Source: Lentisphaerota bacterium (GTDB lineage: Bacteria; Verrucomicrobiota; Kiritimatiellia; UBA8416; VGWJ01). From it: DNA of 64,000 nucleotides. The DNA lies in the NCBI GenBank assembly GCA_016873635.1, contig VGWJ01000008.1, positions 6,078-70,077 of the forward strand, given 5' to 3'. Within the stretch, counting starts at the first letter, position 1. Every line of letters begins with the position of its first letter. The notes under the pieces were generated by a model. The model had not been told where the DNA came from, did not search any database, and worked only from the letters and a program-made list of their open reading frames with translations. This document shows positions 26,924-64,000 of the stretch, in pieces. The translations under genes and the position numbers were made by a program.

Positions 26924-26979
26924 CTTTTGCCCGGAAAATGTTCCACCTGACACCCGACACCTGAAACCTGAAACCCGAC

Positions 26980-43645: not shown

Positions 43646-43651
43646 GGAGAT

Positions 43652-43700: not shown

Positions 43701-43726
43701 GAGGAAGGAGCAACAAGGAGGCAGCC

Positions 43727-44014
43727 ATGACAAAACGGGAACTGGTGCTCAGGATTACGGAGGAAACGGGGATCCCGCAGCAGGACGTCTACGCGGTGAT
43801 CCAGAAGACGCTGGACTACATCACGGAGGCGCTCGTCGCCGGCGACCACATCGAGTTCCGCGATTTCGGCGTGTTTGAGATCCACAAGCGCCGCCCGCGC
43901 ATCGGGCGCAATCCCAAGAAGCCCGACCAGGTCGTGCGCATACCCGCGCGCAAGGTCGTCAAGTTCAAGGCCGGCAAGCGCATGAAGGAGCTCGTGCTCG
44001 CGTCCGGAAAGTGA
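43727..44014 (+). CDS. HU/IHF family nucleoid DNA-binding protein
   Basis: AAGGAGG RBS. RDFGVFEIHKRRPRIGRNPKKPDQVVRIPARKVVKFKAGK (HU arm and RNP motif). Confidence 0.85.
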   Translation: MTKRELVLRITEETGIPQQDVYAVIQKTLDYITEALVAGDHIEFRDFGVFEIHKRRPRIGRNPKKPDQVVRIPARKVVKFKAGKRMKELVLASGK

Positions 44015-44015
44015 A

Positions 44016-45302: not shown

Positions 45303-45318
45303 CGCCCGGCGCGGAAGC

Positions 45319-45478
45319 GGGAAGCTCAGGAAACGCGGAAGATCAGGAACTCAAGAGGAATCAGGAACTCAGGAAAAATCAGGAACTCAGGAAAGGTTGC
45401 CTATGGGGATCCAGATCACATGCCCTCTTTTCCTGAGTTCCAGATCACATTCCCTCTCTTCCTGAGTCCCGGATCAGG
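45319..45478. repeat. repeat-built palindromic intergenic element: four direct copies of ~18-bp unit (ATCAGGAACTCAGGAAA) followed by two inverted copies; bidirectional terminator-like / MITE-like
   Basis: gaagatcaggaactcaagagga atcaggaactcaggaaaa atcaggaactcaggaaagg ... cttttcctgagttccagatcacattccctctcttcctgagtcccggatcagg read directly between convergent hisS and aspS. Confidence 0.7.
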
Positions 45479-47235: not shown

Positions 47236-47238
47236 GGT

Positions 47239-48192: not shown

Positions 48193-48195
48193 TGT

Positions 48196-49053
48196 TTACT
48201 GCGTGACCGGTTGCGTGGATGTGGTCGTGGGCTCCGGCGCCGGTTGCGCCGTTGTCACGGTGAGCGCCGTGCCGTGCGACCAGCCGCGAACCTGGCGAAC
48301 CGACCCGCCCTGGATCCAGTTGCCCTCGAGAACAAACATCGTCCCCGATTCGTCGATGGAATACTCCCGCGAATAGCTCTCGGAACGCGTGCGCGTTTCC
48401 GTTTCCGAGTCGGTCCTGTTCTGCGTATCGGTCTCGCTTTCCGTGGACGTTCCGGAAGAGGTGGTGGTCGTCGTCACGGTCGTGTCGCCCCGCGTCGTTT
48501 CCGTGACGACGGTTGTCGTGGCGTCATCCGTTGTCGTCTCGTCGCCGGTTTCGCCCTTGGTCGAATCCTCGCTTTGGGTATCGTCCCTGGTGTGCGAGAT
48601 CGCAAGCGTCTCGCCCTCGACGTCCCTGACCGCCACGGCGCGCACGATGCCGATGAAGCGCACGTCGCCGCCCTCGAAGGACACCTGGGCCTGCAGGATA
48701 TCGGCGCCGGCCGGATATTTGCCGCTCACATCCGGCGATCCGATGACGCCGGGCGAGCCGACCGTTCCCAGATAGTAGTTGTTCGCGTTGTCCAGCACCT
48801 CGATCGTGTTGCCCGTCTGCGTGACGATCAGGCGCGTGATGCCCGTCCCGCACACTACGGCGCCGTCGCCGCCGCACGCGCCGCCGCCCGAGAGCTTCTC
48901 GGGCTTGAATTCCGTATATATGCCCGAGAAGTTCACGGATGCGCCGCCGCCGTGGCTGGTGTTGAAGCTGTCGGCCTGTTCCCATTCGCACCCGGCCGCC
49001 AGCGCCAGGGCCGTCAATGCCGTCGTGAAAATCCGCCGTCCTGCAGTTCTCAT
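48196..49053 (-). CDS. lipoprotein with Thr/Glu/Asp-rich low-complexity C-terminal half
   Basis: Signal + lipobox LALAAGC, GGAGG RBS. TTTDDATTTVVTETTRGDTTVTTTTTSSGTSTESETD. Confidence 0.65.
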   Translation of the reverse strand: MRTAGRRIFTTALTALALAAGCEWEQADSFNTSHGGGASVNFSGIYTEFKPEKLSGGGACGGDGAVVCGTGITRLIVTQTGNTIEVLDNANNYYLGTVGSPGVIGSPDVSGKYPAGADILQAQVSFEGGDVRFIGIVRAVAVRDVEGETLAISHTRDDTQSEDSTKGETGDETTTDDATTTVVTETTRGDTTVTTTTTSSGTSTESETDTQNRTDSETETRTRSESYSREYSIDESGTMFVLEGNWIQGGSVRQVRGWSHGTALTVTTAQPAPEPTTTSTQPVTQ

Positions 49054-49196
49054 TGCTCTGCCTCCATGCCCTCGGCCGGACCTCAAACCCGTATCCGGCC
49101 CGCAATCCCGTTCCCCGCCTCCCCGCGATCGGGGGGCGCGGGCCATCTTTGTACGCCCGTCTCCGGCCGCATTCAAGCGCCAAAGCGCGCCCCGCG

Positions 49197-52100
49197 CTAC
49201 AGTCCGTTCATCCCCTTGAATACTATCCGATACATCCGGGCGGGCTCAATCTCGGAATCCCAGTCCACGTAGCCGGCCGTTTCGTCTTCGGCGATCACCG
49301 TGGCGATCGGCGTCCAGGCATCCGCCGTCGGCAGCGACTGGGGCGTCGCGCACTGCACTTCGTAGATCCCGCCAACCATGGCGTTCCACGAGATCAGGGC
49401 CGGACTGTTGATCGAGATGCCCAGCACGATCTCGTTCACGGTCAACGCGGGGAGCCTGACGCGCCACGTTCCGTCGCCCGACGGAACCAGGCCCACCGGC
49501 CAGCTCCCGTCGCCCGTGGCCACGCGGTACTCGCCCGCCGGCAGCAGCTCGAAGACGTACACGCCGTTGTTCGGCGTGTAGCGCTGCATCAGGTTGGTGC
49601 CTACCGCGCCCAGCAGGTAGACGTCGCCGGCGTCCAGGTAGGTCCCCGAGATCTCGCCGCCCTGCATGATGGCCACGTCGTCGATGTACCATCCGCCGGC
49701 GCGGCCCTGCCCGTCGGAGGTCAGCATGAACTTCAGGTAGACGTTGGTTTCCGTCACGGTGATAGGGGCGATCACGCGCCGCCATTCGCCCGTGGTGTTC
49801 GCGAAGCTGTTGCGCCGCGACACGATGGTGATCGGCGGCCGCGGCGGCGCGGTTCCGCCCGTGCGCTGCAGGATATCGGCCTGCGTGCCGGGACGCACCA
49901 TCTCGACCGATACCCAGTCGTTGTCGTCCGCCAGGTCAAGCCACTCGTGGAACACCAGGAACCAGCGGTTCGTGTTGGGTATGGGCGAGGAATCCGGCAG
50001 CCACCTGTAGGTGTAGCTCGGAGGCACGTCGAAACTCAGCAGCGGCGAGTAGAGATCCATGATCGCGTTGTTCTCGTACGAGCCGTCCAGGTCGGTCCCG
50101 TAGCACCACCGTCCCGAGTGGGCTTTCCGCGGCGCCATGTTGTCGCCCGTTCCCGCGGGGGAGCCGAGCTCCCATTCGTCGCGCGGATCGTCGGGCGGGA
50201 AAGCCCCGAACCGGTGCCACCACAGCTCGATCGACTGCGCATATATGCCCTGGAACCCGGTCTCGATCCACTCGTTCGGCGGCGTGGGCGGCGGCGTGCG
50301 GCGGCCCTCTCCGGGATGCCCGGCGTAGATGGCCTCAAAAAACTCGGCGTTAATGCCCGTGTGCGGGTGATAGGCCGACTCGAAGTCCGCGATGAAGTTG
50401 AGCCGCATTGGCCCAGCTCCGGGAACATACGTCATCCCGCCCAGCTTCCGGTAGTTGTACGGAACCTTCTCCGGGGCCGTGGTGTTCATGGCCGCGCTGG
50501 CGATGACCAGGCCGTTGGCGCGCGGGTCCCGTCCCGCGGCCGGTCCGCCCAGCGCCATTTCCTTGCCGTCCTCAACCCAGTCGCCGTCCGTGTCCTCGGC
50601 CGTCGGCAGCGTCCCGCAGCGGCCGCCGAACATCAGCATGACCGGGGGGCCGCCGTAGTCGTCGCCCACGAACGGGTAGGCCCGGGCCACCGGCGACGGG
50701 CGCAGGTTGAAGGGATGCGCCATTTCGCCGCTGGGTTCCGTCAGGATCCACCGCCATCCGTCGGAAACCACCGCGCTGATCTCGTTGGTGTCGCCCACGT
50801 AGGCCACGCCGGCTTCCTGCAGGATCCAGGTGTCGTTGAAATAGCGCTTGCCGTCGGTCCCGCCGAACACGGCCGGAATCCCGCCGGCATATGTTCCGAA
50901 GGCCATGCCTCCGCGCGGCGGCGGCTTGTCGATGGTGTAGACCGGCGGAATGCGACCGGTGTCGGCGAAGACGTCGATCTGGGTCCAGTCGAAGCCGTCC
51001 CAGTGCCACAGGTCGTTGAGCGGCTTGTTGTTCCGGTCGAACCCGCCGAATACGAGCATGCCCGTGGCCCCTTCCGCCATGCCGTGGCCCCAGCGCGCCG
51101 GCGGCCGGTGCAGGGGGTAGATCTGGGTCCAGCTAAGCGCGGTCGCCGAAACCCAGGTGTCGTCCAGGACGCGGTTGCCGTCCACGCCGCCGAACAGGGT
51201 CCACAGCTCGTTGAAGTTGTCGTATTCCATGGCCGCGGACTTGCGCCGGTGCGGCGTGGGCAGAGGGAAGAGCGGAACCCAGATCTCGCTGGCCGGCCGC
51301 CACCAGCGCGGCTCCGCGATGGTGATGCGCAGCCGCGCGGAGTCGTGCCAGAAGCTCAGGACGCCGGGCGAATTGGTCAGGCCCACGAAAACGAAGCCCA
51401 TGTTTCCGCCCAGCTCCCATTCCGCGGGGGGCGGCGCGCTGCCGTCCACGGCTTCGAACATCTCGCGCACGGCCGCGGTCACGTCGATGAACACCGCATC
51501 GCCGACTTCCGCGGGCGGAATGGTCACCACGACGGACGTCGTGTTGAATACCCATTCCGGATCGAGCGGCTTGGTGATGTACCGCACGCACGGCGGGTTG
51601 GTGGCGTAGTCGGTCGGCGAGGTCAGCAGCGCATGCTCCTGCGGCTCCTCCGCGGACACGCCCTTCTCGTCCCGGCTGAGTTCGCCGACGACCAGAACTT
51701 CGAACTCGTTGGTGCGCCGCGTCGCGGCCGTCAGTTGCAGGACCGCGATGACGCTGTCCGGCGAGGCGTAGTCGTACCGCGTATTCAGCACGGGGCCGAT
51801 GTTGACGCCGGTGTAGTAGACGTCGTTGGAGGCCGGACCGGCGGCGCCCAGCATGACGCGCTGATTCGCCGAGACCGGAATGATCGGCAGGGCCAGGCGG
51901 TTGGTCTGGTAGGCATCGGCCCGCGAGCCCCACTGGTAGACGATCTCGGTGGTGTCGTCGCGCGGAATGTAGTAGGGGTTGTAGTGCAATCTCACCGAGC
52001 CCCCCTGGTAGTCTTCCGCGTAGTCGTGCGGCAGCCCGCCCTCGTACGCGTATTTCGGGCCCAGCGTATCGTCCAGATGCCATCCCGTGATGAACGAGGT

Positions 52101-55100
52101 CCGGCTGCTGTTGTCTCTGCCCGCTTCGCCCCAGATGGCCAGCGGTTCGGTGCCCTGGTCGCCGTCATAGTACAGGTATCCCGGCATCGAGCCGGGGCGG
52201 GGCCGGCCCACCAGGTCCACGGGGGCCGGTGACCGACCGTACCCGATCCCGGAGTTCAGCTCCAGCCGCGACGCCACCATGATGCCGTCCGACGCCGTCG
52301 GCAGGGCGCGGAATCCGTAGGCCAGGCCCTCGAGCACGCCGACCCGCTGCAGGTCCCACATCGCAAGCTGCTTGATCTCCCAGATTTCGTCGAAGAACTC
52401 CGCGCCGTCGCGGCCGCCGAAGATCATGAAAGTGTTGCAGCCGAGCAGGTGCTGGTCCCTGACGGCGTTGCCGTAGACCAGGCCGCCGACGTACGTGCCG
52501 GGCCCGCCCCGGCCGTCGTCGTCGATGATGTTGAATACGGACTGGCCCGCGCCGCCGCCCCAGCGCCGCGACGGGGTCATGGCATTCGTGCTTGTGATCG
52601 GCGAGATCAGGCTCGGGTCCTGGCCGTCCACCCTGTCGTTATGGAAGACGAACCGGTCGAAGCGCATGCCGTACGAGCGCCCTGAGATCGAGATCGTGTG
52701 CACCCCCTCGGTGAGGGGCACGATCACGTCCATGAGATAGCCGCGCGGCCGGTCGGCCGTGGCCCCGTACACCTGCCTGGTGTACCAGTTCCAGGCCCCG
52801 CCGCGACCGCCGCCGCCGTCCGGGGTGTCGGAAGTCAGCTTGCGCCACTGGCCGCTGTCGACCCGCAGCCAGTAGCTGTGATTATCGTAAGGGTCGTAGG
52901 GGTCGACGAATCCCATGTCGTAATAGGTGCGCGCGATGAACCGGTAGGCCCCCGCCTGTTCCACGTTGATGCGGTACAGCAGAAGTTGATCCGGGTCGTC
53001 GGGAACGTCGAACGGAGACGGCGCGCCGTCTAAGAACGGCGCGCTGGCGAAGCCGTGGTATTCCAGGTACGTCGTCGGACCGTCCGTGCCCTGGCTCCAC
53101 AGCGTCGGAATGATGCGGTTCTTCACCGCCTCGCCCGGGTTGTCGTAGGGCACGTTTTCGAACTCGACCACGACGTAGCCGTTGCCCGCTTCGTCGTACG
53201 TATCGGCATAGAGGACGTCCCGGTCGGGGAAGATCCTCACCCAGGCCGTCAGGCCGCCGATCGGCCGCACCAGGGCCCACAAGTCGTTCAGGGCCCGGTC
53301 CAGGTGGTCGGGCGAACCGAGGAACGTGTTGACTTCGCGCAGTTCGGCGCCGGGCAGCTCGCCGTCGTAGATGCCGTCGCCGTCCGTGTCCTGGTCCACG
53401 GGATGGGTGCGGTGCAGCTTGATTTCCTCGCCGTCGACCAGGGTGTCTTCGTCCGTGTCGGGATACCACGGGTGCAGGCTGCCCACAATGGCGTTCGGAT
53501 TCGCGTCCGCATCGAGCACGAAGCGGTAGTTGTACTCGTTGATGTTCTCCACGCCGTCCTCGTCGAGGTCGTTGTACCGCCACAGCGCCCAGTAGCGCAG
53601 GACTTCCCCGAGACCCAGCTCCTCGGGGGCGGGAATCGGGTCGCGCGGATGCAGCCCGTGCCACGCCTCCCAGCCGTCGGGCATGCCGTCGCCGTCCGAG
53701 TCGGCGTTGAACGGCTCGGTGGGATAGTCCCAGATGATCTCGACGCTCACGTAGCCCACGACGGGCGATTCGAGCACGCCCGGCCCCGGCGGCGAAGCGA
53801 TCGGGTGATAGAGGTGGAACCGGTCATACGAGGCGTTGGTCAGCCCGCCGCGGATCTCGATCGTGTGCCGGCCGGGGAGCAGAGTATAGGTGTTGGGCAC
53901 CGGAACGCCGTTCGTATACTGCGCCGTGGTGTAGACCCAGGACGTGACCGAGCCCGACGACACGGTCCAACGCCACTCGCTGTCGGGGCCGTCCACGCGC
54001 ACCCAGCAGGCGTTCTCCACGCCGGGGTTGGCGTTCTGGTGCCGATGCCGCAGTTGGAACGTGTACGTGCCGGCCAGGCGCGTATCGATATAGTACGGGT
54101 TGTTGACAAACGGCACGTAGGGCTCGGCGGTAACGGAAGGGCCGCGGTAGGTCCGATAGGCCGTGCCGCGGTAGTCGGGATACGCGGTTTCGGTCTGCCA
54201 CGAGTCCCACTGCGGGATGGATTCCATTTCCACGACCACGACTCCGCCCGTCTCACCGAACACCGGAATCTCGCCCAGGAACATGCCGGGCGTCAGGCCG
54301 AGGCGGCCGTCGCGCACGAGCCATTCCTCGTAGTTGGTCAGGCCGTCGCCGTCCGGATCCTCGTCCGCGTCCTCGGGGTCGGAGGGATTGAGCCGCAGCC
54401 CGACGGGACGGATGTTGCCCATGGCGTCCATGACTTCGAAACCGTCGGGCATGCCGTCGCCGTCGGTGTCCCAGTCCGTGGGGCCGTCCACGAAGCCGTC
54501 CTGGTCCATGTCCCCGCCGTTCCAGTCGGGGAAGAAGCCGCGATCGAGGCCGTTGCCCGCGTCAAGGTCGGTGTCGACCACTTCCTGGCCGTCCATCAGG
54601 CCGTCCAGGTCGGTGTCCTGGAGGGTGGGGTCGGTCCAGTAGACGTAGACTTCCAGGCCGTCCTGGATCATGTCCATGTCCGTGTCCGGATTGCGCGGAT
54701 CGGTGTCGGACTGCCATTCCTCCAGGTTGGGCAGGGTGTCGCCGTCGGGATCGTCGTGGGCGTCCGCCGGATTGCGCGGATCGAGCGAGAACTGACGCTC
54801 CCAACCGTCGGGCATGTGGTCCTTGTCGGTGTCCTGGTCGTCGGGCCGGGTCCAGTCGTTGGTGTTGGCCGTCTCGTCCGCGCCCTCGAACTCCCTGATA
54901 TTGACCAGCCCGTCAAAGTCCGGATCCGATTCGCGCTCGCCGCGGTTGAGCGGGTTGAGGCCGACGTCGCTGTACTCGACGATGGGCGGGTCGGCGCCGA
55001 ATATGTTGGTGCGCGGGATCCCGACCGTACGATAGCTGAACCAGTGCTCCCAGCCGTCCCACATGCCGTCGCCGTCGCTGTCGGCGCGGTTGGGGTAGGT

Positions 55101-58100
55101 ATCCCCGAAGACAATCGTGCCGGGCAGGTAGGATGCGTCGGGGATGGCCTCAGACGGGCCGAAGGTCGGCAGCGAGTAGAACACGATCGGCGTGTCGAAG
55201 CGGTCGTGCATCCACATCACGCCGGTCGGCATGACCTGGTCGCCCTGGATCGAGAGGCGCACGTTGCCCGGCGTGAAATCGCCCGTCACCGGGAAGGCGG
55301 AGACGCCTTCCAGGAACCGGCCCCGGAACCAGACCCCGATGCCGGAGTCCGGCAGCGTGGCGTTGGTGGCCAGCGTGCTTATGGCGTAGGTGTTGGTCCG
55401 GTAGTCGTAGTTCAGTTCCTCGCCGTCGGTCAGCTCGTCGTCGTCCGTGTCCGGATCGAACAGGCCCATGCGCACGCCGTGCTGCAGGAACGCCTCCCAT
55501 TCCACGATGCTGGCCAGGCCGTCGCCGTCGGGATCGTCGCGGCCGCTGTACTTGAAGACGTTGGTGTAGCTTTCCATCTCGAGCGCGTCGCCCACGTCGT
55601 CGTAGTCGCCGTCCGCTTCGTGCATCCGGTAGATCACCTGGGGCGTGCCGCCGGTGTAGACGCCCACCGCCTGCGGGGCGCCGTAGCGGTAGCCGTCCTT
55701 GTTGCACGTGACCCAGTGCGCGCCGATCACGAGGTTGGAGACCGTCACCGGCGTGCCCAGGTACGGGCCGACCACTTCGTTGGAGGCCAGCGGCAGGCCG
55801 TCCAGGTACACCGTGGCGTTGGTGATCTCGTTGCCGAACACGTCCTGGGCCCGGACCAGGAGCCGGCCCAGCGAGGCCTCGGTCTCGGAGGCCGGGAACC
55901 AGACGATGCCGCGCTCGGTCACGGGGATGGTGATTTCCTTGGGCGCCACCCGCCGGTCCGTCGCGTTGCTGGCGACCAGGTGAACGAGGTGATCGCCCGT
56001 GAGCACGTCGAACCGCACGGGATGGAAGTTGCCCGGCGTCGCCACGCCCGTGTCGGCGCCGTCCAGCCAGATGCGGTAGCCGCCCACCTCGGCGCGCACG
56101 TCGAGCTGCACGGGCGCCTGGTTGGTGCGCAGCGTGACGACGGACATCTCGCCGCCGCGCACGGGCAGCTTCACGCGCGAGACCAGCGGCATGTCCGGCC
56201 AGCCCGGACGGAACCAGAGCTGGTGGTCGCCCGGCGAGGCGTTGTCGATGAGGGCCGGCGCGACGGGGTTGCTGTAGTAGTCGGGCTCCGGCCAGTTCTT
56301 GCCGCCGGCCAGGTTCGTGGTCGTGTAGGCCCGCCAGTGGTCGTTGGAACCGCCCGGCGCGTTGGTGCCGCCGTCCCACACGAACGCGTTGGTTACGTAT
56401 TGCCCGACGTACACGCGGGTCGGCCGGTTGGTGAACAGCACCCCGATGCGCCCCAGGTTCGCGCCGCCGCCGATCTCGAAGTCGGCGCGCTGGAAGGCCC
56501 TGTGGTCCAGAAGCGCGAGGCGGCCGTTGGTCGCCTCGCTGAGGTTGTAGACTCCGGCGTTGATTTGCTGTCCGAACGCCTCCCAGAAGTTGGCGTTGGT
56601 GTAGAGCACGCCGTTCCAGAACTCCGGCCGGAACCCGGAAGCCTCGGCCTTGACCTGGTAATGCCCCAGCGGCAACCCTTCGATGCGGTAGCGGCCGGAC
56701 TTGTCCGCCACGCCGAAGGCGAACACCGCGCCGGGGTATTCGTAGGCGTGGCCGTGCACGACGTTGGTCATCGTGCGGCCGATGGCCATCACGCGGGCAT
56801 CCCGGATCGGCGCGCCGTTGAGGTCGCGCACGAAGCCTTCGACGTACGTGCCGGCGTAGACCTTGATGTCGTCGACCCACCAGCCGCGGAACTGGTTGTT
56901 GATGGTGTTCTCGCACTCGAACTTGAACATCAACTGGACGTTCGTGCCGAGAGAAAGCTCCGGCGCGGACAGGTCGGCCACGCGATGCACCCATCCGGAG
57001 CTTACGCCGGAGACGTCGGGCCGCACCGCGAGCCAGGTGTCGCGCGTCAGCTCCGAACGGGCGAAGACTTCGCACATGTCCCATCCGGCCTCGGTTTCGT
57101 AGTACTCGTTCCAGGAGACGTACAGGTTGACCACGCGGTTCGAGTTCGCGTTGAAGACCGGCGACACGAGTTCGCCCCTGACCCACTGTCCCTTCTGGAA
57201 ATAGGTCGCGTTGAAGTTCGTGCCGTCCGCCACGTCGTTGGCGAAACGGAACGCGTGGTTCGTGCTGTGCTTGTACAGGACGTCGATCGGATACGCCGCG
57301 CCCGCCGGCGGGACCTGGGACCTGGGCTCGGTGCGCGTGCGATGCCACATGCTCCGGTACACGGACGTCAGCCAGTTCGTATGGGAGGGCGTCTCGCAGT
57401 CCTCGATCATGGGCCGGCCGCTGAGGTCGGGGAGGATGAACACGACCGGGTTGTTCGTGCCGACGTTGTTATAGCCGAGCTGCCACTCCATGCCGTCCGC
57501 AATGTCGTTGTCGTTGCCGTCCTGGTCGAGCGGATTGCCGTTCGCCGCCAGCTCCATGCTGTCGTCCAGGCCGTCCCCGTCGGTATCGGAGCTCCGGGGA
57601 TGCGTGCCGAACACGAGGACTTCATCGCCGTCGGAGACGCCGTCCAGGTCCGTATCCGTGAAATTCGGGTCCGTGCCGTAGGCATGCTCCTGCCAGTTGG
57701 TCAGTCCGTCGCCGTCCAGGTCGCCGTAGCGGTCGGCCGGATTGCCGGGATCGAGCTGGTTGAAGGTTTCGTAGGCGTCGCCCATGCCGTCGCGGTCGCT
57801 GTCGCCGCGGGTCGGGTCGAGCCACCAGTTCGTGGGGTTGGCCCCGGCGGCAACGCTCCACTTGCCGGTGCCGGTGTGGTCGCGCCAGTAGGCGAATTCC
57901 TCGATATTGAGCAAGCCGTCGCCCTCGAGGTCGGAGTACGGCTTCTGGGCGGCCTTGCCGTCGGCCGCGTTGGTCGTGGACAGGTTGTCCGTCCCGTTGT
58001 CGAACGGGTTCATGGTCAGCGCGTTGGTGTGGGTCTGGTAGCCGGGATTGGCGCCCTGGTACAGCGCCACCAGCGGCGACACGGCGCCGTTGTTGGTGGA

Positions 58101-61100
58101 ATAGTACCACTCCCAGCCGTCCCACATGCCGTCGCCGTCGGTATCGGCGATGACCGGGACGGTGCCGATGCGGTCTTCCTCGATCGCCGGCAGCCAGTCG
58201 CCGTCCGCGTCGCCCAGGAGGCTGTACGGACCGGCAAGGCGGATAACCTTGTTGCCGTCGATGAAGCCGCCGGAGTTCTCCGCGCGCACGCCCCAGTACC
58301 AGACCCGGTCCACGGGCATGTGGGGAACCACGGCCTGCGCGACGTTCGTGACGACGCCGAACTCGTTGCTGAACACCGCGGCGATCGCCGCCGCGTTGCC
58401 GGCGGGCGGGATATTGGTGTCGGCGGGGTCGTAGCCCGTCCCGGGCGTCCGGTAGAGGTGATACTTCATCGCCCCGGCCGGGTTGGGGTCGGGCACCTGG
58501 ATCCAGGTCAGCGTCACGTGCCCGGTAGGCGTCAGTCCGGCCACGGACGACCCGACGGCCGAACGCAGCCCCGCAAAGCGCGGCGGCCCCGAATGACCCA
58601 CCAGGCCGAAGGCCAGGGTCTCGAGCAGACCGTTCCGGAAGTTCATCACCGCCAAGGCGGGAGCCTCGTAAGGGCTGACTGCCATGTCGCAAAGCGTGTT
58701 CTGGGAACCGATCGTCACTGCTCCGGGTGGCGAATCCGCCCCGCCCGCGCCCAGCCACTGCGTACCGTTCCACACCTTGCACAGGATCTGGTTGGTCTCG
58801 CCGCTGCCGTACTGCCAGGAAACGAATACCTTGTTGTTGCGCCAGCCCACCATGGGGTTGAGCACCACGTCGTTCGTGGGGGCGGCAACGCCCGGATACG
58901 TCGCGGATCCGCCCAGGCCGCCGGTGTTCCACGTGGAGCCGTTGGACGAGTAAGCCAGCTTGATGGAACTGGACATTTCGGAAGGCGGTTTGGGCACTTC
59001 CTCCCACACGACGTAGATGCCGTTGGAGCTGTCGCAGGCCACGCGCGGATTGCCGGCGACGGCGCTGGTACCGAGGTCGGTCCCGACCTTGGCCCACGCG
59101 CTTCCGGTCCAGCGGTAGCACTTGACCCGGAACAGGCCGGTCACCAGTTCGCTCCAGACCAGCACGGGCCGGCCCCGCGCGTCGGTCGCCATGTCCAGGG
59201 AGCCGCGCGACACGGAATCGCCCGCCACGTCGACGCGGCCGCTGACAACCTGCGCCGCCGTGAGGCCCTGCCAGGCTCCGGCCGTCGGGTTCCACCGCTT
59301 GACGCGGATGTCTTCGGAGAAGTACGGCGACACGGTCCGCGCCGAGGGGTGGATGTAGGCCACCACGGGCCAGCCGTTGGACCAGATGCCCACCGACGGC
59401 TCGCGCGCGTCGTAGTCCGGCGTGTCGGAGGAGATGCCCAGATCCTGGAAAGAGCCGCCGAGCTGCTCCCACGTCACGCCGTTGAAGTAGCGCATGTAGA
59501 TCGCGTCGGAATAGCTTTCGTCCCAGCTCACCTGCCGCCAGGCCACGAACACGTAGTCGTTGGAGCTGACGGCCACGGAGGGTTCGATCGAGTTCATGCC
59601 CGGGATAACCGACGCGGTGATCGCTTCTTTTTGCCAGTCTCCCATCGCATGACAATGCCACTTGTCGCGGAGCTGCTGCCACGTGCCGAACTGGCTGCCG
59701 TCGCCAAACGGCCCGAACCAGCGCCGCACGAAAACATCGTATATGTCGACCCCTTCTTGGACATGCCTGCCGGAATACACGACCACCGGCGCCCCGTCCT
59801 TGTGGAATGCCAGTTCAGCGGGGCTGTCCTGCCTGGCCCCCATGCTGCCGCCGATGCCGCTGGCGCCCTTCATGATCACCAGCGAGTAGGGCTGGCTGGG
59901 ATTGGGCACCTGGAAGCCCCTGACGTAGACCTTGTACGTGCCCTGCCGGGTGTACGGGATGACGATGTTCTCGACGTTGTTGAAGCGGTCGCCGTAGAGA
60001 ACGTAGTAGAATCCCACCGGATAGCTGGACGAGCCCCAGCCTCGCGGCCCCATCAGGTTGCCGACGTAGACGTTGCCGTCCGGCGCGACCACGTACAGGT
60101 CGAGGTCGTTGATCAGCACGTTGCCCACGCCCGGCGTGGCCGGATAGTCCGACCAGGCCAGCGTGATCCGCAGCCCGCCCTCATGTTCGAAGGGCACGAG
60201 GTAGTCGAAGGTGTTCTCCAGGCCCGTGCCGTCGATGGAGTTCATCTCGTTATGGAGTACCAGCTCGTCAGTGGAGCGCGAACTTGCGCCCTCAATCGAA
60301 CGGAAAATGTCGGCGCGGCCCCATCCGTCGGCGATCTGCGGACGGGTCGGATCGAACTGTCCGTACCAGAACGGGTTCAGTTCCACCGCGCCGTTGACCA
60401 GCATGGCCTTGATCAGAGAAGGGGTGGGCGCTTCGCGATAGACGTTGGTGTACCACTGGTAGATCAGGGCTCCCAGGCCCGCAGTCAGCGGCGAGGCCAT
60501 GGAAGTCCCGCACAACGCCGCGTAGTTCGTCCCCGTGTCCAGGTTGCCGTGACGGTAGTCGTAGTTCGGCATCCCCATAAAAGGCACCGTGTCGAAATTC
60601 ACGTCCTTGCTCTGTATCGACACAACGTATGAACCCGGCGCCACGACGTCTGGCTTGACGCGGCCATCGGGCGTTGGTCCGCAGGAACTATAGCCGGCCA
60701 CCTGCCAGTCGGAGTCCGTCATTTGCGTCGCACCCGGCAGGTTCTTTGCCAGCCGGCGCTGCTCCAGGGCGCCCACAGTGATCACGTTCTTGGCATTGCC
60801 CGGCCAGCACACCGTGCCCGCGGCGCCGCCCGAGCCGTCGTTGGCCCCGCCGCCCTCGTTGCCGGCGGCGAAAAAGACCGCAAAGTGCTGCCTTCCGCCC
60901 GTGTCGGGGTCGGCGTCGCGTACGACTTCGTCCCAGATCCTGGATTCGATGCTGTAGTCGAACGCGGCCGCGCCGACGGCATTCGGGTTGGCGCCCCAAC
61001 TGTTGTTCATCAGCCGCGCGCCCTTGTTGTGGGCCGTCTTGCTCACATAGAGCGTATCGTTCCGTAGGGGGTCATCGCCCGCAGTGCCGATGAAGCCCTC

Positions 61101-62507
61101 GAACATCACCAGGCTGGCCTTGGGGGCGACGCCGGCGAAGTTGCGGTTGGTATAGGGCGCGGCGCCTGAGCCCGGCACGCGGATCACGTTTTCGGACCAC
61201 GCCCCGTTGCCGAGAATGCTGCCGACGACGTGCGAGCCGTGGCCGCCGCTGTCGCCGATGATACCGTCGGCCGCGTAGAAGTTGGGCGCCATCTCGTAGT
61301 GCACGATGCGCGTGTTGTTGTTGGGATAGGAGGTGGCGTTGGTCGGGTTGAGCGAGAACCCCCTGTGCCAGACGTCCGCGCCCGAATCCATGACCGCGAC
61401 GGTCACGCCATCGCCGTCAAGCCCGACTTGGGCGGCGTTGAAGCGCGAAGCGCCGGGTGCGCGCAGAGTCACCCTGGCGAGGTCGTTCAGCAGTTTCGGC
61501 GCCACGCGGGTCTGCACCCACTTGACCGATTCGCACCTGACCACCTGCGCCAGCAGGTCCGGCGAACAGGTCACGTTGGCCATGCGCTCGGCGTCCTTGC
61601 CGTCGTCAAGCGTCACCTTCGCGCCCAGCTTCTTCAGGTCGGCCGCGGGCTCTTCGTCGGGATCGGCCGGCGTGAACAGCAGCACGCTGTACCGGCCCTG
61701 CTCCACGACTTCGCGCGTCTCTTCATCCGGCGCGCCGGTCAGATACGCCTGCACGTCGGCGCTCATCTTGTAGAAGGGATGGAAGGGCTCGACGTAGCGC
61801 ACCGCCGCCAGCGCGCGCACCCGCTCCAGCGTTTCCGCGTCGGCGGTGAGCGCGTAACCGCGGTTGGGGACATAGTGCTCGATCACGGCGCCCGCGGCCT
61901 CGATCTCGGACTTCAGCGCCGCGGACACGGGGTCGTTGAGCAGAACGATGTGCCGGATCGTGTCGGGGCTCGCGCGGAAAGCCTCGGGCACTTCGACCGA
62001 AGCGGCGCCGCCCTCGATCGCGGCCACGTCGATGATCGCGTTGCGCAGCACGATCACGGCCGGATCGCGGCGCAGGGCGGCCAGGGAACGGCCCGAATTG
62101 AACAGCACCCCGCGCGTATGCAGCTCGGCTTTCTCTTCCTCCGACATCGGCTCGGCCCACGTCGGAAGCGCTTTGGCGTCCCAATTCGCCTTGATCGTCT
62201 GGGAGGCGCCTGGGTCGGGTTGGCCGGAAGCCGCCACGGGCTGAGGCGCTCCGACGGAAGCGCCGGCCGCGGCGGGAGCCGCGGAAGGCGGCGCGTCGGG
62301 CGGCGCGGACACGGGATCGGCGTCCTGAGAAGCCGGAACGCCCGCGGCCGGCCCCGCCGCGCCCGCCGGCGACGCCGGGCCGGCGACGCCGCCTCCCCCC
62401 GGCGTCCGCCCGTGCATCACAAAGACCAGAGCCGCCGCGGCCGCCACGACCGCGACGATCAGCACTGCCAGCATCCTGCGCGGTTTCATGCTCATATTCT
62501 TTATCAT
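49197..62507 (-). CDS. giant (4436 aa) N-anchored multidomain surface protein: subtilisin-like S8 peptidase + beta-propeller (BNR/sialidase-like) + numerous TSP3-type Ca-binding repeats + CarboxypepD_reg-like + Kelch-like propeller + choice-of-anchor-J-like (GWYIDDV) modules
   Basis: Single uninterrupted 13.3 kb frame. N-terminal TM MLAVLIVAVVAAAAALVFV + Pro/Ala stalk. S8 triad VAVMDSGAD / GGHGSHVVGS / CGTSMASP. TSP3 repeats (DTDGDGMWDGWE, DSDRDGMGDAYE, DLDGDGLTNWQE, DTDLDGVSDGDE, DPDGDGLTNYEEW, more than 20 copies). Kelch-like LWTLFGGVDGN...WGHGMAEG...LVFGGFD. WxIDDV motifs near the C-terminus. Confidence 0.85.
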   Translation of the reverse strand: MIKNMSMKPRRMLAVLIVAVVAAAAALVFVMHGRTPGGGGVAGPASPAGAAGPAAGVPASQDADPVSAPPDAPPSAAPAAAGASVGAPQPVAASGQPDPGASQTIKANWDAKALPTWAEPMSEEEKAELHTRGVLFNSGRSLAALRRDPAVIVLRNAIIDVAAIEGGAASVEVPEAFRASPDTIRHIVLLNDPVSAALKSEIEAAGAVIEHYVPNRGYALTADAETLERVRALAAVRYVEPFHPFYKMSADVQAYLTGAPDEETREVVEQGRYSVLLFTPADPDEEPAADLKKLGAKVTLDDGKDAERMANVTCSPDLLAQVVRCESVKWVQTRVAPKLLNDLARVTLRAPGASRFNAAQVGLDGDGVTVAVMDSGADVWHRGFSLNPTNATSYPNNNTRIVHYEMAPNFYAADGIIGDSGGHGSHVVGSILGNGAWSENVIRVPGSGAAPYTNRNFAGVAPKASLVMFEGFIGTAGDDPLRNDTLYVSKTAHNKGARLMNNSWGANPNAVGAAAFDYSIESRIWDEVVRDADPDTGGRQHFAVFFAAGNEGGGANDGSGGAAGTVCWPGNAKNVITVGALEQRRLAKNLPGATQMTDSDWQVAGYSSCGPTPDGRVKPDVVAPGSYVVSIQSKDVNFDTVPFMGMPNYDYRHGNLDTGTNYAALCGTSMASPLTAGLGALIYQWYTNVYREAPTPSLIKAMLVNGAVELNPFWYGQFDPTRPQIADGWGRADIFRSIEGASSRSTDELVLHNEMNSIDGTGLENTFDYLVPFEHEGGLRITLAWSDYPATPGVGNVLINDLDLYVVAPDGNVYVGNLMGPRGWGSSSYPVGFYYVLYGDRFNNVENIVIPYTRQGTYKVYVRGFQVPNPSQPYSLVIMKGASGIGGSMGARQDSPAELAFHKDGAPVVVYSGRHVQEGVDIYDVFVRRWFGPFGDGSQFGTWQQLRDKWHCHAMGDWQKEAITASVIPGMNSIEPSVAVSSNDYVFVAWRQVSWDESYSDAIYMRYFNGVTWEQLGGSFQDLGISSDTPDYDAREPSVGIWSNGWPVVAYIHPSARTVSPYFSEDIRVKRWNPTAGAWQGLTAAQVVSGRVDVAGDSVSRGSLDMATDARGRPVLVWSELVTGLFRVKCYRWTGSAWAKVGTDLGTSAVAGNPRVACDSSNGIYVVWEEVPKPPSEMSSSIKLAYSSNGSTWNTGGLGGSATYPGVAAPTNDVVLNPMVGWRNNKVFVSWQYGSGETNQILCKVWNGTQWLGAGGADSPPGAVTIGSQNTLCDMAVSPYEAPALAVMNFRNGLLETLAFGLVGHSGPPRFAGLRSAVGSSVAGLTPTGHVTLTWIQVPDPNPAGAMKYHLYRTPGTGYDPADTNIPPAGNAAAIAAVFSNEFGVVTNVAQAVVPHMPVDRVWYWGVRAENSGGFIDGNKVIRLAGPYSLLGDADGDWLPAIEEDRIGTVPVIADTDGDGMWDGWEWYYSTNNGAVSPLVALYQGANPGYQTHTNALTMNPFDNGTDNLSTTNAADGKAAQKPYSDLEGDGLLNIEEFAYWRDHTGTGKWSVAAGANPTNWWLDPTRGDSDRDGMGDAYETFNQLDPGNPADRYGDLDGDGLTNWQEHAYGTDPNFTDTDLDGVSDGDEVLVFGTHPRSSDTDGDGLDDSMELAANGNPLDQDGNDNDIADGMEWQLGYNNVGTNNPVVFILPDLSGRPMIEDCETPSHTNWLTSVYRSMWHRTRTEPRSQVPPAGAAYPIDVLYKHSTNHAFRFANDVADGTNFNATYFQKGQWVRGELVSPVFNANSNRVVNLYVSWNEYYETEAGWDMCEVFARSELTRDTWLAVRPDVSGVSSGWVHRVADLSAPELSLGTNVQLMFKFECENTINNQFRGWWVDDIKVYAGTYVEGFVRDLNGAPIRDARVMAIGRTMTNVVHGHAYEYPGAVFAFGVADKSGRYRIEGLPLGHYQVKAEASGFRPEFWNGVLYTNANFWEAFGQQINAGVYNLSEATNGRLALLDHRAFQRADFEIGGGANLGRIGVLFTNRPTRVYVGQYVTNAFVWDGGTNAPGGSNDHWRAYTTTNLAGGKNWPEPDYYSNPVAPALIDNASPGDHQLWFRPGWPDMPLVSRVKLPVRGGEMSVVTLRTNQAPVQLDVRAEVGGYRIWLDGADTGVATPGNFHPVRFDVLTGDHLVHLVASNATDRRVAPKEITIPVTERGIVWFPASETEASLGRLLVRAQDVFGNEITNATVYLDGLPLASNEVVGPYLGTPVTVSNLVIGAHWVTCNKDGYRYGAPQAVGVYTGGTPQVIYRMHEADGDYDDVGDALEMESYTNVFKYSGRDDPDGDGLASIVEWEAFLQHGVRMGLFDPDTDDDELTDGEELNYDYRTNTYAISTLATNATLPDSGIGVWFRGRFLEGVSAFPVTGDFTPGNVRLSIQGDQVMPTGVMWMHDRFDTPIVFYSLPTFGPSEAIPDASYLPGTIVFGDTYPNRADSDGDGMWDGWEHWFSYRTVGIPRTNIFGADPPIVEYSDVGLNPLNRGERESDPDFDGLVNIREFEGADETANTNDWTRPDDQDTDKDHMPDGWERQFSLDPRNPADAHDDPDGDTLPNLEEWQSDTDPRNPDTDMDMIQDGLEVYVYWTDPTLQDTDLDGLMDGQEVVDTDLDAGNGLDRGFFPDWNGGDMDQDGFVDGPTDWDTDGDGMPDGFEVMDAMGNIRPVGLRLNPSDPEDADEDPDGDGLTNYEEWLVRDGRLGLTPGMFLGEIPVFGETGGVVVVEMESIPQWDSWQTETAYPDYRGTAYRTYRGPSVTAEPYVPFVNNPYYIDTRLAGTYTFQLRHRHQNANPGVENACWVRVDGPDSEWRWTVSSGSVTSWVYTTAQYTNGVPVPNTYTLLPGRHTIEIRGGLTNASYDRFHLYHPIASPPGPGVLESPVVGYVSVEIIWDYPTEPFNADSDGDGMPDGWEAWHGLHPRDPIPAPEELGLGEVLRYWALWRYNDLDEDGVENINEYNYRFVLDADANPNAIVGSLHPWYPDTDEDTLVDGEEIKLHRTHPVDQDTDGDGIYDGELPGAELREVNTFLGSPDHLDRALNDLWALVRPIGGLTAWVRIFPDRDVLYADTYDEAGNGYVVVEFENVPYDNPGEAVKNRIIPTLWSQGTDGPTTYLEYHGFASAPFLDGAPSPFDVPDDPDQLLLYRINVEQAGAYRFIARTYYDMGFVDPYDPYDNHSYWLRVDSGQWRKLTSDTPDGGGGRGGAWNWYTRQVYGATADRPRGYLMDVIVPLTEGVHTISISGRSYGMRFDRFVFHNDRVDGQDPSLISPITSTNAMTPSRRWGGGAGQSVFNIIDDDGRGGPGTYVGGLVYGNAVRDQHLLGCNTFMIFGGRDGAEFFDEIWEIKQLAMWDLQRVGVLEGLAYGFRALPTASDGIMVASRLELNSGIGYGRSPAPVDLVGRPRPGSMPGYLYYDGDQGTEPLAIWGEAGRDNSSRTSFITGWHLDDTLGPKYAYEGGLPHDYAEDYQGGSVRLHYNPYYIPRDDTTEIVYQWGSRADAYQTNRLALPIIPVSANQRVMLGAAGPASNDVYYTGVNIGPVLNTRYDYASPDSVIAVLQLTAATRRTNEFEVLVVGELSRDEKGVSAEEPQEHALLTSPTDYATNPPCVRYITKPLDPEWVFNTTSVVVTIPPAEVGDAVFIDVTAAVREMFEAVDGSAPPPAEWELGGNMGFVFVGLTNSPGVLSFWHDSARLRITIAEPRWWRPASEIWVPLFPLPTPHRRKSAAMEYDNFNELWTLFGGVDGNRVLDDTWVSATALSWTQIYPLHRPPARWGHGMAEGATGMLVFGGFDRNNKPLNDLWHWDGFDWTQIDVFADTGRIPPVYTIDKPPPRGGMAFGTYAGGIPAVFGGTDGKRYFNDTWILQEAGVAYVGDTNEISAVVSDGWRWILTEPSGEMAHPFNLRPSPVARAYPFVGDDYGGPPVMLMFGGRCGTLPTAEDTDGDWVEDGKEMALGGPAAGRDPRANGLVIASAAMNTTAPEKVPYNYRKLGGMTYVPGAGPMRLNFIADFESAYHPHTGINAEFFEAIYAGHPGEGRRTPPPTPPNEWIETGFQGIYAQSIELWWHRFGAFPPDDPRDEWELGSPAGTGDNMAPRKAHSGRWCYGTDLDGSYENNAIMDLYSPLLSFDVPPSYTYRWLPDSSPIPNTNRWFLVFHEWLDLADDNDWVSVEMVRPGTQADILQRTGGTAPPRPPITIVSRRNSFANTTGEWRRVIAPITVTETNVYLKFMLTSDGQGRAGGWYIDDVAIMQGGEISGTYLDAGDVYLLGAVGTNLMQRYTPNNGVYVFELLPAGEYRVATGDGSWPVGLVPSGDGTWRVRLPALTVNEIVLGISINSPALISWNAMVGGIYEVQCATPQSLPTADAWTPIATVIAEDETAGYVDWDSEIEPARMYRIVFKGMNGL

Positions 62508-62600
62508 CCCATCACTGCCGTCCGGTGACGGATTCCAGACAACACAGTTGATGTCTAATCTACCGCCATGCGATGTCTGTCCGCAAGAAAAACCCTTTCC

Positions 62601-63092
62601 TCAATGCTTGTCCGCGGCCGGCCTCCCTCCACCCTGGCCGGCGATCTTCAGGCCCTCGGCCCGGATGTCGTTCAACAGGAGTTGCTCCCGGTCCTTGAGC
62701 CGTGACAGCCGCTCGTAGGCCGCGCGGCGTTCCTCCTTGATGGCCTTCATCTCGGGTGTGGTCATCAGCATCTCGTTAAGTTGCCTGCGTTTCTCCACGG
62801 TTTTCCGCTCCAGCTCGACAATCTCTTCGTATATGGCCTTGGCCTGCGCGTTGGTGTAAACCACGTCGTGATTGAACCGGAAAAAACGCTTGTTGGCCTC
62901 ATCCGCCGCTTTCCGCGCCTGCTCCATGTCCTCCCGCGTCCGCGCCAGCTCCGCCGTCAACACGTCGATGCGATTGGTCGCGCCCTCCACGACCGCGGCC
63001 GCCATGAACAGCCCGGCCGCCACGAGTCCGCCAAGCAGCGAACGGCGGCCCGCCGGCGCTTTCCCGCTTGCAGTTCCGTCGTTCATTGTCAC
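62601..63092 (-). CDS. small membrane-anchored coiled-coil protein (163 aa), upstream of and co-oriented with the giant gene
   Basis: N-terminal TM LLGGLVAAGLFMAAAVV. Remainder is heptad-rich (ELARTREDMEQARKAADEANKRF...). Confidence 0.55.
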   Translation of the reverse strand: MTMNDGTASGKAPAGRRSLLGGLVAAGLFMAAAVVEGATNRIDVLTAELARTREDMEQARKAADEANKRFFRFNHDVVYTNAQAKAIYEEIVELERKTVEKRRQLNEMLMTTPEMKAIKEERRAAYERLSRLKDREQLLLNDIRAEGLKIAGQGGGRPAADKH

Positions 63093-63348
63093 AGCTTGAT
63101 TCTAGGCCCTATCCCGCGGACGTTCAACGCGCGAATTGTCAAGAAACTGTACCCTCGCCGCCGCCGCGGCCATGGGCCCCCACCCTGTCGTCTGAAGCCT
63201 ACCGTCCCTTCCCCGCAGAGGCCTTCCGCCGACACAACGTTACCACACAATAGAGAGAAAGCACCAGTCGTGCCAAATCCACGCCAATATGGAAAGAGGT
63301 CATAGAAGACAGCCGGCAACCACTAGATACTGGTGCGAGATGCACGCA

Positions 63349-63385
63349 TTGACACTTGACACGAGGGCTTATGTGCGTGCATAAT
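63349..63385 (+). promoter_or_regulatory. near-consensus sigma70 promoter: duplicated TTGACA, 18-bp spacer, CATAAT; -10 ends 9 nt before the ATG (leaderless or very short leader)
   Basis: cattgacacttgacacgagggcttatgtgcgtgcataatgcgcgcatcATG read directly. Confidence 0.5.
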
Positions 63386-63394
63386 GCGCGCATC

Positions 63395-64000
63395 ATGGTT
63401 GCTGAAGGTTTACTTGAGCCGCGGCTCAATCAGTACGTTGACCGGTACGTCACGACTGACGCGCCTCTTCACGACATTCTTGTTTCCGCGCCGGTTCCGC
63501 GCTCCCCGCTGGTGCAATCGTTGCTTTACATTGAAGAGTGTCTGGCCGGGCGACGCCTGGCCAAGAACGCCATAGACGCGGCGGAGCAGGTTCCGCTGAA
63601 GGGCAACGATCCCGAGCTGCTGGTGTTGATGCTCAGCCGCTGGGCCGAGCTGTCGTGCCGCATCGGCCGCCCCACGGAGGCGGAGGCCCTTGTCAACCGC
63701 GCCGCGTCGCTGATCGCCGACGGCACCCATCCCGTCATCCGGGCCGTCGCCACGTTCGTGGAGAGCGTGCTGGCCGACACCACCGGCAACAAGGCGCGCC
63801 GGGAGGCGCTGCTGGGCGAGATCATTGCGTCGCTGCCCGCGCATTCGCCGCGGCGCAAGTTCTACGTCATCGAGCTGGCCATGGCCCTCGCCCAGCAGGG
63901 CCGCGGCGTCGAGGCCCGCGACGCGCTGCGCGAGCTGGCCTGGCAGTGCAACGAACGGCTGGACATCGCCAACGTGCAGCTCGTGGAGTTCGTCGACGCC
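63395..64000 (+). CDS. 3'-partial CDS of unknown function (soluble, helix-rich; open to window end)
   Basis: ATG 63395 opens a frame with no stop through 64000 (MVAEGLLEPRLNQYVDRYVTTDAPLHDILVS...). Sits right after the strong promoter. Not in the ORF track because it lacks a stop. Confidence 0.5.
   Translation, partial: MVAEGLLEPRLNQYVDRYVTTDAPLHDILVSAPVPRSPLVQSLLYIEECLAGRRLAKNAIDAAEQVPLKGNDPELLVLMLSRWAELSCRIGRPTEAEALVNRAASLIADGTHPVIRAVATFVESVLADTTGNKARREALLGEIIASLPAHSPRRKFYVIELAMALAQQGRGVEARDALRELAWQCNERLDIANVQLVEFVDA

Follow-up and report, generated by a model that had tools for sequence, protein, structure and literature searches.

We analyzed a stretch of 64,000 nucleotides (the window) from contig VGWJ01000008.1 of a Lentisphaerota bacterium (assembly GCA_016873635.1), in which one gene of 13.3 kb, at 49197..62507 on the minus strand, encodes a protein of 4,436 amino acids (aa). 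The sequence supports the reading of this protein as a mosaic, in which one chain joins an intact subtilase to many beta modules of the binding type. It belongs to a family that appears to be undescribed and, judging by the genomes in which we find it, restricted to Kiritimatiellae-like bacteria of the Planctomycetes-Verrucomicrobia-Chlamydiae (PVC) group. The reading that we favor, with a little more than even confidence, is that of a giant envelope or surface protein exported by the Sec route, a self-maturing protease that carries a calcium-loaded binding rod, and that is retained either non-covalently or through its C-terminus and a partner lipoprotein. All modules of the protein are given below by residue number and by their coordinates in the window, on the minus strand.

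The reading frame is a single one. It runs from an ATG through 4,436 codons to the stop, with 0 internal stops, at exactly the coordinates of the uninterrupted gene that the original prediction had described. An artefact would mean a chimeric assembly, an assembly in which repeats had collapsed, or a pseudogene in decay that high GC content holds open. It is true that long spurious open reading frames (ORFs) arise easily in high-GC DNA, and that in the loci L004 and L006 the orthologue is broken into two overlapping frames. Against this, contigs from seven other samples or runs align to the window without gaps at 99.9-100% identity (JGI 3300020222, 3300020074, 3300020603 and 3300020083; Logan SRR7979708, SRR7979709 and SRR7008372). 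The stretches of these contigs that we fetched span window positions 42445-50235 and 52601-64000; between 50235 and 52601, a single independent contig covers the stretch among the assemblies fetched. The whole gene is present on one independent contig of 61 kb, where the called product of 4,425 aa starts at M12 and agrees with the window protein in every residue. Moreover, the gene of the relative P0124 is intact on 19 contigs, domain matches span the full length of the protein, and hundreds of columns are invariant among relatives that are 34-48% identical. Tandem Repeats Finder picks up nothing beyond trivial arrays of two copies in the gene, whose thrombospondin type 3 (TSP3) motifs have diverged at the DNA level. 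Because there are no DNA-level tandem repeats of note, the collapse of internal repeats that the original prediction had named as a danger is unlikely, and the independent contigs are collinear with the window. The 4,436-codon gene is a real chromosomal gene, and the idea of an artefact or pseudogene is effectively refuted; we leave it next to no probability.

As a side observation, the two split orthologues are broken at different places (L004:13315-13808 and L006:1423-1727). Sequencing errors or lineage-specific decay explain these breaks most simply, and the gene in the window is unaffected.

The composition of the gene also argues for a coding sequence in the sense frame. The GC content at codon positions 1, 2 and 3 is 0.64, 0.48 and 0.90 (GC3 0.897), so that the high GC3 falls where it should. 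Opposite the gene lies an antisense ORF of 2,525 aa (53055..60632), whose codons are in register with those of the sense frame. What keeps it open is that the sense gene, with a GC3 of 0.90, has just six TTA, CTA or TCA codons, 0 of them between codons 626 and 3159; it is an artefact of codon bias, as had been proposed. The gene could start at M1, M5, M7 or M12 (62474-62507). Gene callers chose M12, which gives no positively charged n-region, while the ATGs at 62507, 62495 and 62489 retain KPRR ahead of the hydrophobic segment. We favor M1, M5 or M7 because that n-region then stands directly before the hydrophobic segment.

The domain map that follows is based on Pfam and NCBIfam searches of the whole protein and of 14 segments, a PDB sequence search, a 10-member family alignment (A1), and two AlphaFold models, of the propeller region and of the carbohydrate-binding module (CBM)-like modules, with Foldseek fold searches (TMt is the TM-score normalized to the target). 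Judged by its alignments, the protease head (residues 341-720, 60348..61487) genuinely belongs to the KP-43 subfamily of S8 peptidases. The Pfam Peptidase_S8 model scores 128.6 bits against a gathering score of 21.8 (E = 3.9e-37) and also matches 10 of 10 relatives. The structure of KP-43 (PDB 1wmd) matches residues 348-879 with E = 1.4e-40, reaching residue 433 of its 434, and a profile of the family finds S8 structures in the PDB with E = 1.2e-75. The residues D374, H423, N550 and S669 align with the KP-43 motifs DTG, HGTH, GNEG and GTSMA, where N550 is the oxyanion Asn, and all four are invariant in the 10 aligned family members. The Asp, His and Ser motifs are retained in each of the 14 S8-bearing relatives checked. 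Residues 721-880 (59868..60347) align with 1wmd to residue 879 as the C-terminal beta-barrel typical of these proteases. With triad, oxyanion Asn and beta-barrel all present, the protease looks intact and active, and the complete subtilisin domain that had been claimed holds up on careful alignment.

The resemblance to the KP-43 subtilases (the Bacillus sp. KSM-KP43 protease 1WMD, SubHal 5FAX, and Bergeyella SpBcA) goes end to end over the catalytic domain and the beta-barrel, and it includes the triad, the oxyanion Asn and the ND motif of the mature N-terminus. Those enzymes, however, are secreted proteases of 430-640 aa, whereas here the same module heads a chain of 4,436 aa. They also differ from the giant protein in that it has a propeptide region of about 240 residues in two units, behind a hydrophobic anchor and a stalk, and in that the S8 domain is dispensable in some relatives.

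The N-terminus reads as had been predicted for both of its first elements. Residues 12-31 (62415..62474), with KPRR before them and a Kyte-Doolittle value of 3.07, form the sole hydrophobic segment of the protein, an export signal or a signal-anchor; a Kyte-Doolittle-type hydrophobicity scan finds no second transmembrane (TM)-like segment in the window protein or in any family member. They are followed by a stalk (residues 32-103, 62199..62414) that is 68% Pro, Ala and Gly. The putative propeptide region (residues 104-340, 61488..62198) consists of two alpha/beta units and ends at a conserved L|ND junction. KP-43-subfamily peptidases activate by cutting off their own N-terminal propeptide (PMC11982257). 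The sequence NDVARG, with which mature KP-43 begins, aligns with N341-D342, which are invariant in the family; in the alignment of this junction, query residues 345-348 correspond to 1wmd residues from about 5-8.

Thus we can propose how the protein would mature. After export, the protease would fold on its propeptide and then, like enzymes of the KP-43 type, cleave itself at the invariant L|N341-D342 junction. This self-cut would separate a mature chain of about 4,100 residues from the membrane segment. The mature chain may then be held by its C-terminal module and the partner lipoprotein, or non-covalently by the membrane-tethered propeptide, with no covalent N-terminal anchor. The calcium-loaded TSP3 chain would act as a long rod that spaces out the binding modules; the lectin-like modules may retain polysaccharides or glycoproteins, whose protein part the protease would digest, and variable CBM or lectin slots could tune the range of ligands.

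The original prediction had a different model, in which the N-terminal segment stays uncleaved and anchors a membrane-tethered protease-adhesin in the cytoplasmic membrane, from where it reaches outward. The hydrophobic segment does speak for it: 19-22 hydrophobic residues with no obvious AXA site, followed by a flexible Pro/Ala stalk, are found in the window protein and in the relatives nearest to it (P0124, P0125, P0128 and P0163). The absence of a C-terminal sorting signal of a known kind, which the original prediction had noted, speaks for it as well. Pfam and NCBIfam scans give no match to an LPXTG, PEP-CTERM or type IX secretion system (T9SS) C-terminal domain (CTD) model, there is no LPxTG anywhere in the protein, and the C-terminus, which ends in ...ARMYRIVFKGMNGL, has no TM helix. 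On the other hand, several full-length relatives have cleavable-looking signal peptides of the AXA type in place of the long hydrophobic anchor, and other family members have no S8 head at all. In addition, the L|ND junction is invariant, and a KP-43-type self-cut there would sever the chain from its anchor. The host is probably a diderm bacterium, in which an inner-membrane anchor at the N-terminus would not suffice to bring the protein to the cell surface and would leave it beneath the outer membrane. A fixed N-terminal anchor also leaves two things without an explanation, the conserved domain at the C-terminus and the partner lipoprotein, and these two offer an alternative, retention from the C-terminal side. 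A signal-anchor is possible for this particular protein, and the family evidence makes permanent N-terminal anchoring doubtful as a general mechanism. We therefore consider the model of an uncleaved N-terminal anchor unlikely, and the claim that anchoring is N-terminal is not sustained.

The C-terminal end of the chain (residues 4286-4436, 49200..49652) consists of a sandwich like SdrD_B or CarboxypepD_reg, then a conserved beta-domain of about 80 aa that ends in [FY]YR[VI]. Every family member has this last domain (residues ~4355-4436, 49200-49440) in conserved form. A profile built from its 80 aa recovers five short fragments only, the domain being too variable for a genome scan. As an observation apart, a similar C-terminal domain ends an unrelated protein of 1,398 aa in another Kiritimatiellae metagenome-assembled genome (MAG; L005:790-996).

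The gene for the partner lipoprotein (48196..49053, minus strand) begins 143 nt past the stop of the giant gene. It encodes 285 aa with the lipobox LAAG|C (LITG|C in L004), a conserved domain at residues 22-149, and then a low-complexity tail rich in Thr, Ser, Glu and Asp. A homologue of the lipoprotein lies directly 3' of the giant gene in 27 of about 31 loci, and its domain of about 125 residues has a mean column identity of 46% over those 27 sequences. A profile of the domain finds no relative in Pfam or in the PDB. Upstream of the giant gene is a co-oriented gene (62601..63086, minus strand) for a protein of 161 aa, a length counted from the ATG that agrees with the gene calls on other contigs. 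It combines a hydrophobic signal at the N-terminus with a coiled coil and is presumably exported or anchored. The original prediction had pointed to this small TM coiled-coil protein, and it is a real gene, syntenic in L004 (31% identity), L012, L016 and L044. The synteny of the full set in L012 and L004 indicates a conserved cassette, made of the small coiled-coil gene, the giant gene, and a dedicated lipoprotein gene.

One could go further and propose that the FYRV C-terminal domain and the adjacent orphan lipoprotein form an unrecognized system by which Kiritimatiellae-like PVC bacteria sort or attach proteins. We hold this to be speculative and give it a low probability. If true, the pair would parallel the T9SS CTD with PorV, or LPXTG with sortase, and it would explain how very large Sec-exported proteins reach or stay on the outside of diderm cells. 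It would also give a handle on how PVC bacteria display giant proteins.

Behind the protease, residues 881-1300 (58608..59867) are predicted to form a beta-propeller of about seven blades with a repeat of the WNGxxW type. Its AlphaFold model has a pLDDT of 78 and a pTM of 0.74, and the top Foldseek matches are sialidases, polysaccharide lyases of families PL24 and PL25, and GH145 glycoside hydrolases (E from 1e-9 to 1e-7, TMt 0.45-0.58), in keeping with a six- or seven-bladed fold of the sialidase type. The Pfam BNR_4 model matches 1 of 10 relatives. Neither an Asp-box (SxDxGxTW) nor a FRIP motif occurs within residues 881-1300, and no R, D, E or H of the propeller is invariant across the 10 relatives; the invariant residues are only W, G, P, S, A, V and Y. 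This means that the sialidase-like part of the original claim survives as a fold, and the Asp-boxes, the FRIP motif and the catalytic residues that would go with the name are absent. The modelled propeller very probably has the fold of a sialidase and is not an enzyme.

The propeller leads into an FN3-like beta-sandwich (residues 1301-1430, 58218..58607), with modelled strands at pLDDT 75-90 and an fn3 match in 1 of 10 relatives. There follow, at intervals, three blocks of calcium-binding TSP3 repeats: block 1 with about 7 motifs (residues 1431-1690, 57438..58217), block 2 with about 10 (residues 2296-2740, 54288..55622), and block 3 with 4 (residues 2926-3080, 53268..53732). The Pfam TSP3 model (PF18884, motif DxDxDGxxDxxE) scores 39 bits against a cut-off of 25 and matches 9 of 10 relatives. 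Over the three blocks we count 20 motifs with a relaxed pattern, 21 with a self-built hidden Markov model at E < 0.01, and 23 at E < 1; the "more than 20" repeats of the original prediction were about right. Part of block 2 (residues 2471-2740) is 57% identical among relatives and is the best conserved of the non-catalytic stretches.

Between the first two blocks we find a series of beta modules. The first (residues 1691-1885, 56853..57437; 44% conserved) ends in GWWVDDIKV, and we read it from its sequence as a jelly roll of the MAM type, through the GWWVDD motif that it has in common with a second such module further on; MAM and Reelin-B matches exist at the level of the family, not mapped to these residues. 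The second MAM-like jelly roll, with a conserved linker before it (residues 3991-4285, 49653..50537), ends in GGWYIDDVAI and has a mean column identity of 61%. These are the modules with the WxIDDV motif that had been called choice-of-anchor-like. In the window protein, the InhA-like_MAM model stays below its cut-off (18.6 vs. 26.9 bits); 4 of 10 relatives match it, the best with E = 3.7e-9. The function of MAM-like domains in bacteria is poorly known.

After the first MAM-like module comes a CarboxypepD_reg beta-sandwich (residues 1886-1965, 56613..56852), as had been predicted; the Pfam match at 1889-1961 is above the cut-off, and 10 of 10 relatives have it. Residues 1966-2295 (55623..56612) appear to be further beta-sandwiches, including a PEGA domain (2230-2274, E = 1.2e-6).

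On either side of TSP3 block 3 are two accessory jelly rolls. The first (residues 2741-2925, 53733..54287; model pLDDT ~80) resembles CBM6 and CBM35, and the second (residues 3081-3301, 52605..53267; model pLDDT ~70) resembles CBM6, CBM35 and the C-terminal domain of GH115. Their Foldseek matches have TMt 0.6-0.68 overall: 0.67-0.68 for the CBM35 structures 2w1w and 2w47 and 0.64 for the CBM6 structure 2cdp, in addition to GH115 C-domains. At the sequence level neither is a CBM6 or CBM35 member, as Pfam and NCBIfam give no match except GH115_C at E = 0.11. The similarity of the two modules to each other is marginal (27% identity, E ~0.05-0.08), and self-BLAST shows no internal duplication in the giant protein. 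Most relatives are missing these modules, which are present in a few (P0132, P0134, P0135 and P0129; P0121 and P0124). We also observe that several other relatives have a different insert at the second CBM slot, C-type lectin-like by eye and unrecognized by Pfam.

The last large module is a Kelch propeller (residues 3302-3990, 50538..52604). The claim of a Kelch-like propeller is confirmed by a Pfam match at 3751-3897 above the cut-off (PF24681, 56.8 vs. 50 bits; Kelch_4, 27.7 vs. 21.6), and the family profile matches Kelch proteins in the PDB; it recognizes S8 and Kelch domains only. The approximately 400 unannotated residues ahead of this match we read as further Kelch-type blades with an inserted domain. 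The counterpart of that inserted domain in the relative P0145 matches DNRLRE at a sub-threshold E of 6.7e-4, in that single relative, so the assignment is tentative. To the mosaic as it was first described we add the two CBM6/35-like modules, the C-terminal FYRV domain, the lipoprotein gene, a sigma-54 promoter, and the conserved family itself.

With so many modules behind a protease, one can ask if the chain stays in one piece. The S8 domain could mainly serve to cut a giant precursor into separate secreted propeller, MAM-like, CBM-like and Kelch proteins that act independently. Such a polyprotein has been proposed for the N-terminal S8 and C39 domains of giant Omnitrophota proteins (bioRxiv 10.1101/2023.11.21.568195), and flexible repeat regions do separate the domain blocks here. 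However, relatives that have no S8 domain retain the same module order in one chain, no conserved cleavage motif is seen between modules, and the N341 junction alone stands out. Module order is conserved over 34-48% identity, which suggests that the chain works as a unit. A polyprotein is in our judgment very unlikely.

The family came to light through its C-terminal part. A word-indexed database search with the C-terminal 1,357 aa gave one relative, and it was in an exhaustive search of representatives, with residues 3290-4436 as the query, that the family surfaced: more than 25 clusters, formed at 50% identity, whose proteins have 3,000-4,400 aa and match the window protein at 35-48% identity over their C-terminal ~700 residues. 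Ten relatives align over their full length at 34-48% identity with the module order conserved, and their Pfam matches are S8 10/10, Kelch 10/10, CarboxypepD_reg 10/10, TSP3 9/10, InhA-like MAM 4/10 and BNR_4 1/10. A scan with one genome per species finds orthologues in about 31 species-level MAGs, all labelled as PVC bacteria (Kiritimatiellae/Kiritimatiellia, Verrucomicrobia(ota), Lentisphaerae(ota) or Victivallales). The NCBI organism names of the closest matches to the S8 region agree with these labels, and the proteins carry the generic annotation "S8 family serine peptidase", which our full domain map can replace. In the literature collection searched, we found no published description of the family.

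The N-terminal part varies. The relative P0127 has no S8 domain and has a signal peptide and a PPC domain ahead of the propeller, and in L016 and L044 the S8 head is missing and the proteins begin at the propeller. A further observation is an extra alpha/beta domain at residues ~40-120 of P0140, P0145, P0150, P0164 and others, where the window protein has its stalk; it looks like the secretin/STN type, and it has no STN- or secretin-like match in Pfam.

Several points weigh against the self-maturing, C-terminally or non-covalently held surface protein that we favor. Since some relatives have no S8 domain, the protease is not essential to the core function of the family. The propeptide region has very weak matches only to Inhibitor_I9 (E = 0.21 and 0.05). 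The N-terminal segment of the window protein itself looks more like a signal-anchor than like a cleavable signal. The role given to the lipoprotein rests on gene adjacency. No route across the outer membrane has been identified. TSP3 repeats are also found in the periplasmic parts of OmpA-like proteins, so they are no proof of an extracellular location. The matches of modelled modules to CBM and sialidase folds do not show that sugars are bound. And localization, processing, calcium binding and ligands are all things that we infer.

Control of the cassette can be read, in the lineage of the window, from a predicted sigma-54 promoter and a divergent activator gene that precede it. The promoter is of the -24/-12 type (63261..63276, minus strand; TGGCACG-N4-GTGCT, TGGCACGACTGGTGCT), about 175 nt upstream of the small gene, in an intergenic region of 284 nt and on the strand of the giant gene. 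It has one mismatch to TGGCAC-N5-TTGC and is one of only two one-mismatch sites in the 64 kb. The divergent neighbor (63371..64000, plus strand) is the 5' part of a gene that runs off the window; it encodes a sigma-54 enhancer-binding protein of 811 aa with a Sigma54_activat domain (E = 1.2e-63). In the P0124 species, where the giant protein is 48% identical, TGGCACGTTCCGTGCT lies at equal distance beside the same type of activator, and the element recurs at matching distance in L012-L014. We found no inverted repeat in the promoter region as a possible binding site for the activator.

Sigma-54 control is common among motility and adhesion genes. Together with the TSP3 repeats, this brings up a reading as a cell-contact protein: a calcium-dependent adhesin for cohesion, attachment, gliding or attack, similar to Myxococcus CglD and MtsD or to the giant Omnitrophota proteins, with a protease that remodels the contact site. 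Partial NCBIfam matches to CglD (E = 4.4e-19) and MtsD (E = 1.8e-5) exist via the TSP3 repeats, and the gene of one relative adjoins a PilM/secretin operon. But both equivalog cut-offs are missed widely, with 67.8 vs. 400 bits for CglD (NF033765) and 23.1 vs. 800 bits for MtsD (NF047639). The Pil neighborhood is not conserved, no von Willebrand factor A (VWA) domain is present, no gliding-machinery genes are nearby, and the CBM6/35-like modules point to polysaccharide ligands. CglD and MtsD, like the giant protein, place multiple bacterial TSP3 repeats in an envelope protein, and it differs from them by having no VWA domain, no lipoprotein signal of its own, and an unrelated context. We find a dedicated cell-contact role quite unlikely. 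The relative in question (L005:3376-7724) has its giant gene divergent from a PilM-...-secretin operon with a histidine kinase gene, a neighborhood that is not conserved elsewhere.

Other known systems share parts of this architecture. Giant Omnitrophota proteins are likewise encoded by very long single genes. They start with an export signal, contain TSP3 repeats and, in some cases, have an S8 domain close to the N-terminus; with their N-terminal S8 and their TSP3 and dockerin repeats, they have been proposed to bind and degrade polymers at the surface (bioRxiv 10.1101/2023.11.21.568195). They are from a different phylum and have 30-85 k aa compared with 4.4 k here, and the giant protein has none of their glycosyltransferase, methylase and dockerin content. 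We found no homology to them beyond shared domain types, and neither a lipoprotein partner nor an FYRV C-terminus is reported there.

The cell-envelope subtilases of Gram-positive bacteria (the C5a peptidases ScpA/ScpB, and the lactococcal PrtP) also have an S8 domain followed by beta-sandwiches on a long surface chain, with protease and adhesin roles, and a PDB sequence search gives weak matches of the giant protein to C5a peptidase. C5a peptidase and PrtP are monoderm proteins of 1,100-2,000 aa with a C-terminal LPXTG/sortase anchor, in contrast with the giant protein, which has no LPXTG and far more lectin-like content. Finally, the GWWVDD and GGWYIDD modules are similar to the MAM/choice-of-anchor-J jelly rolls (InhA-like_MAM) of Immune inhibitor A (M6), whose M6 metalloprotease domain is absent here and whose model scores below its cut-off in the window protein. 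The giant protein is a conserved variant of giant surface protease-adhesins and a member of none of the compared families.

Kiritimatiellae are specialists on complex, often sulfated, glycans. To our knowledge, how such glycans are captured and opened at the cell surface of Kiritimatiellae is poorly known. Because the family is conserved, large, costly, and wired to a regulator and a lipoprotein, it likely constitutes a major organelle of the cell envelope in this group. Should the proposed reading be true, it would provide a testable model, that of a calcium-stiffened rod with exchangeable sugar-binding cassettes and a protease.

Downstream of the lipoprotein gene in this lineage, a gene for an L,D-transpeptidase with LysM and YkuD domains and aspS follow at gaps of 3 nt, and then hisS, a gene for HU, and proS. 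Because of this tight packing, aspS, which encodes an essential tRNA synthetase, appears translationally coupled to the end of the cassette (45445-49053, minus strand). Scans for terminators and sigma-70 promoters around these downstream genes gave nothing above background. The remaining content of the window is that of an ordinary core chromosome and includes tRNA-Sec, selA, selB, a selD-like gene, topA, dprA and ilvD, so that the giant gene is not on a mobile island.

Two other features of the window can be mentioned. A complete selenocysteine cluster is found at 23307-28614, with tRNA-Sec, SelA, SelB, and an AIRS protein that resembles SelD and carries a fused CMD domain. And two other large proteins (4762-8553, plus strand, and 39064-41721, minus strand) have formylglycine-generating-enzyme-like (FGE-sulfatase) domains, combined with either DUF7948/SBBP propeller repeats or Big_9/cadherin-like domains.

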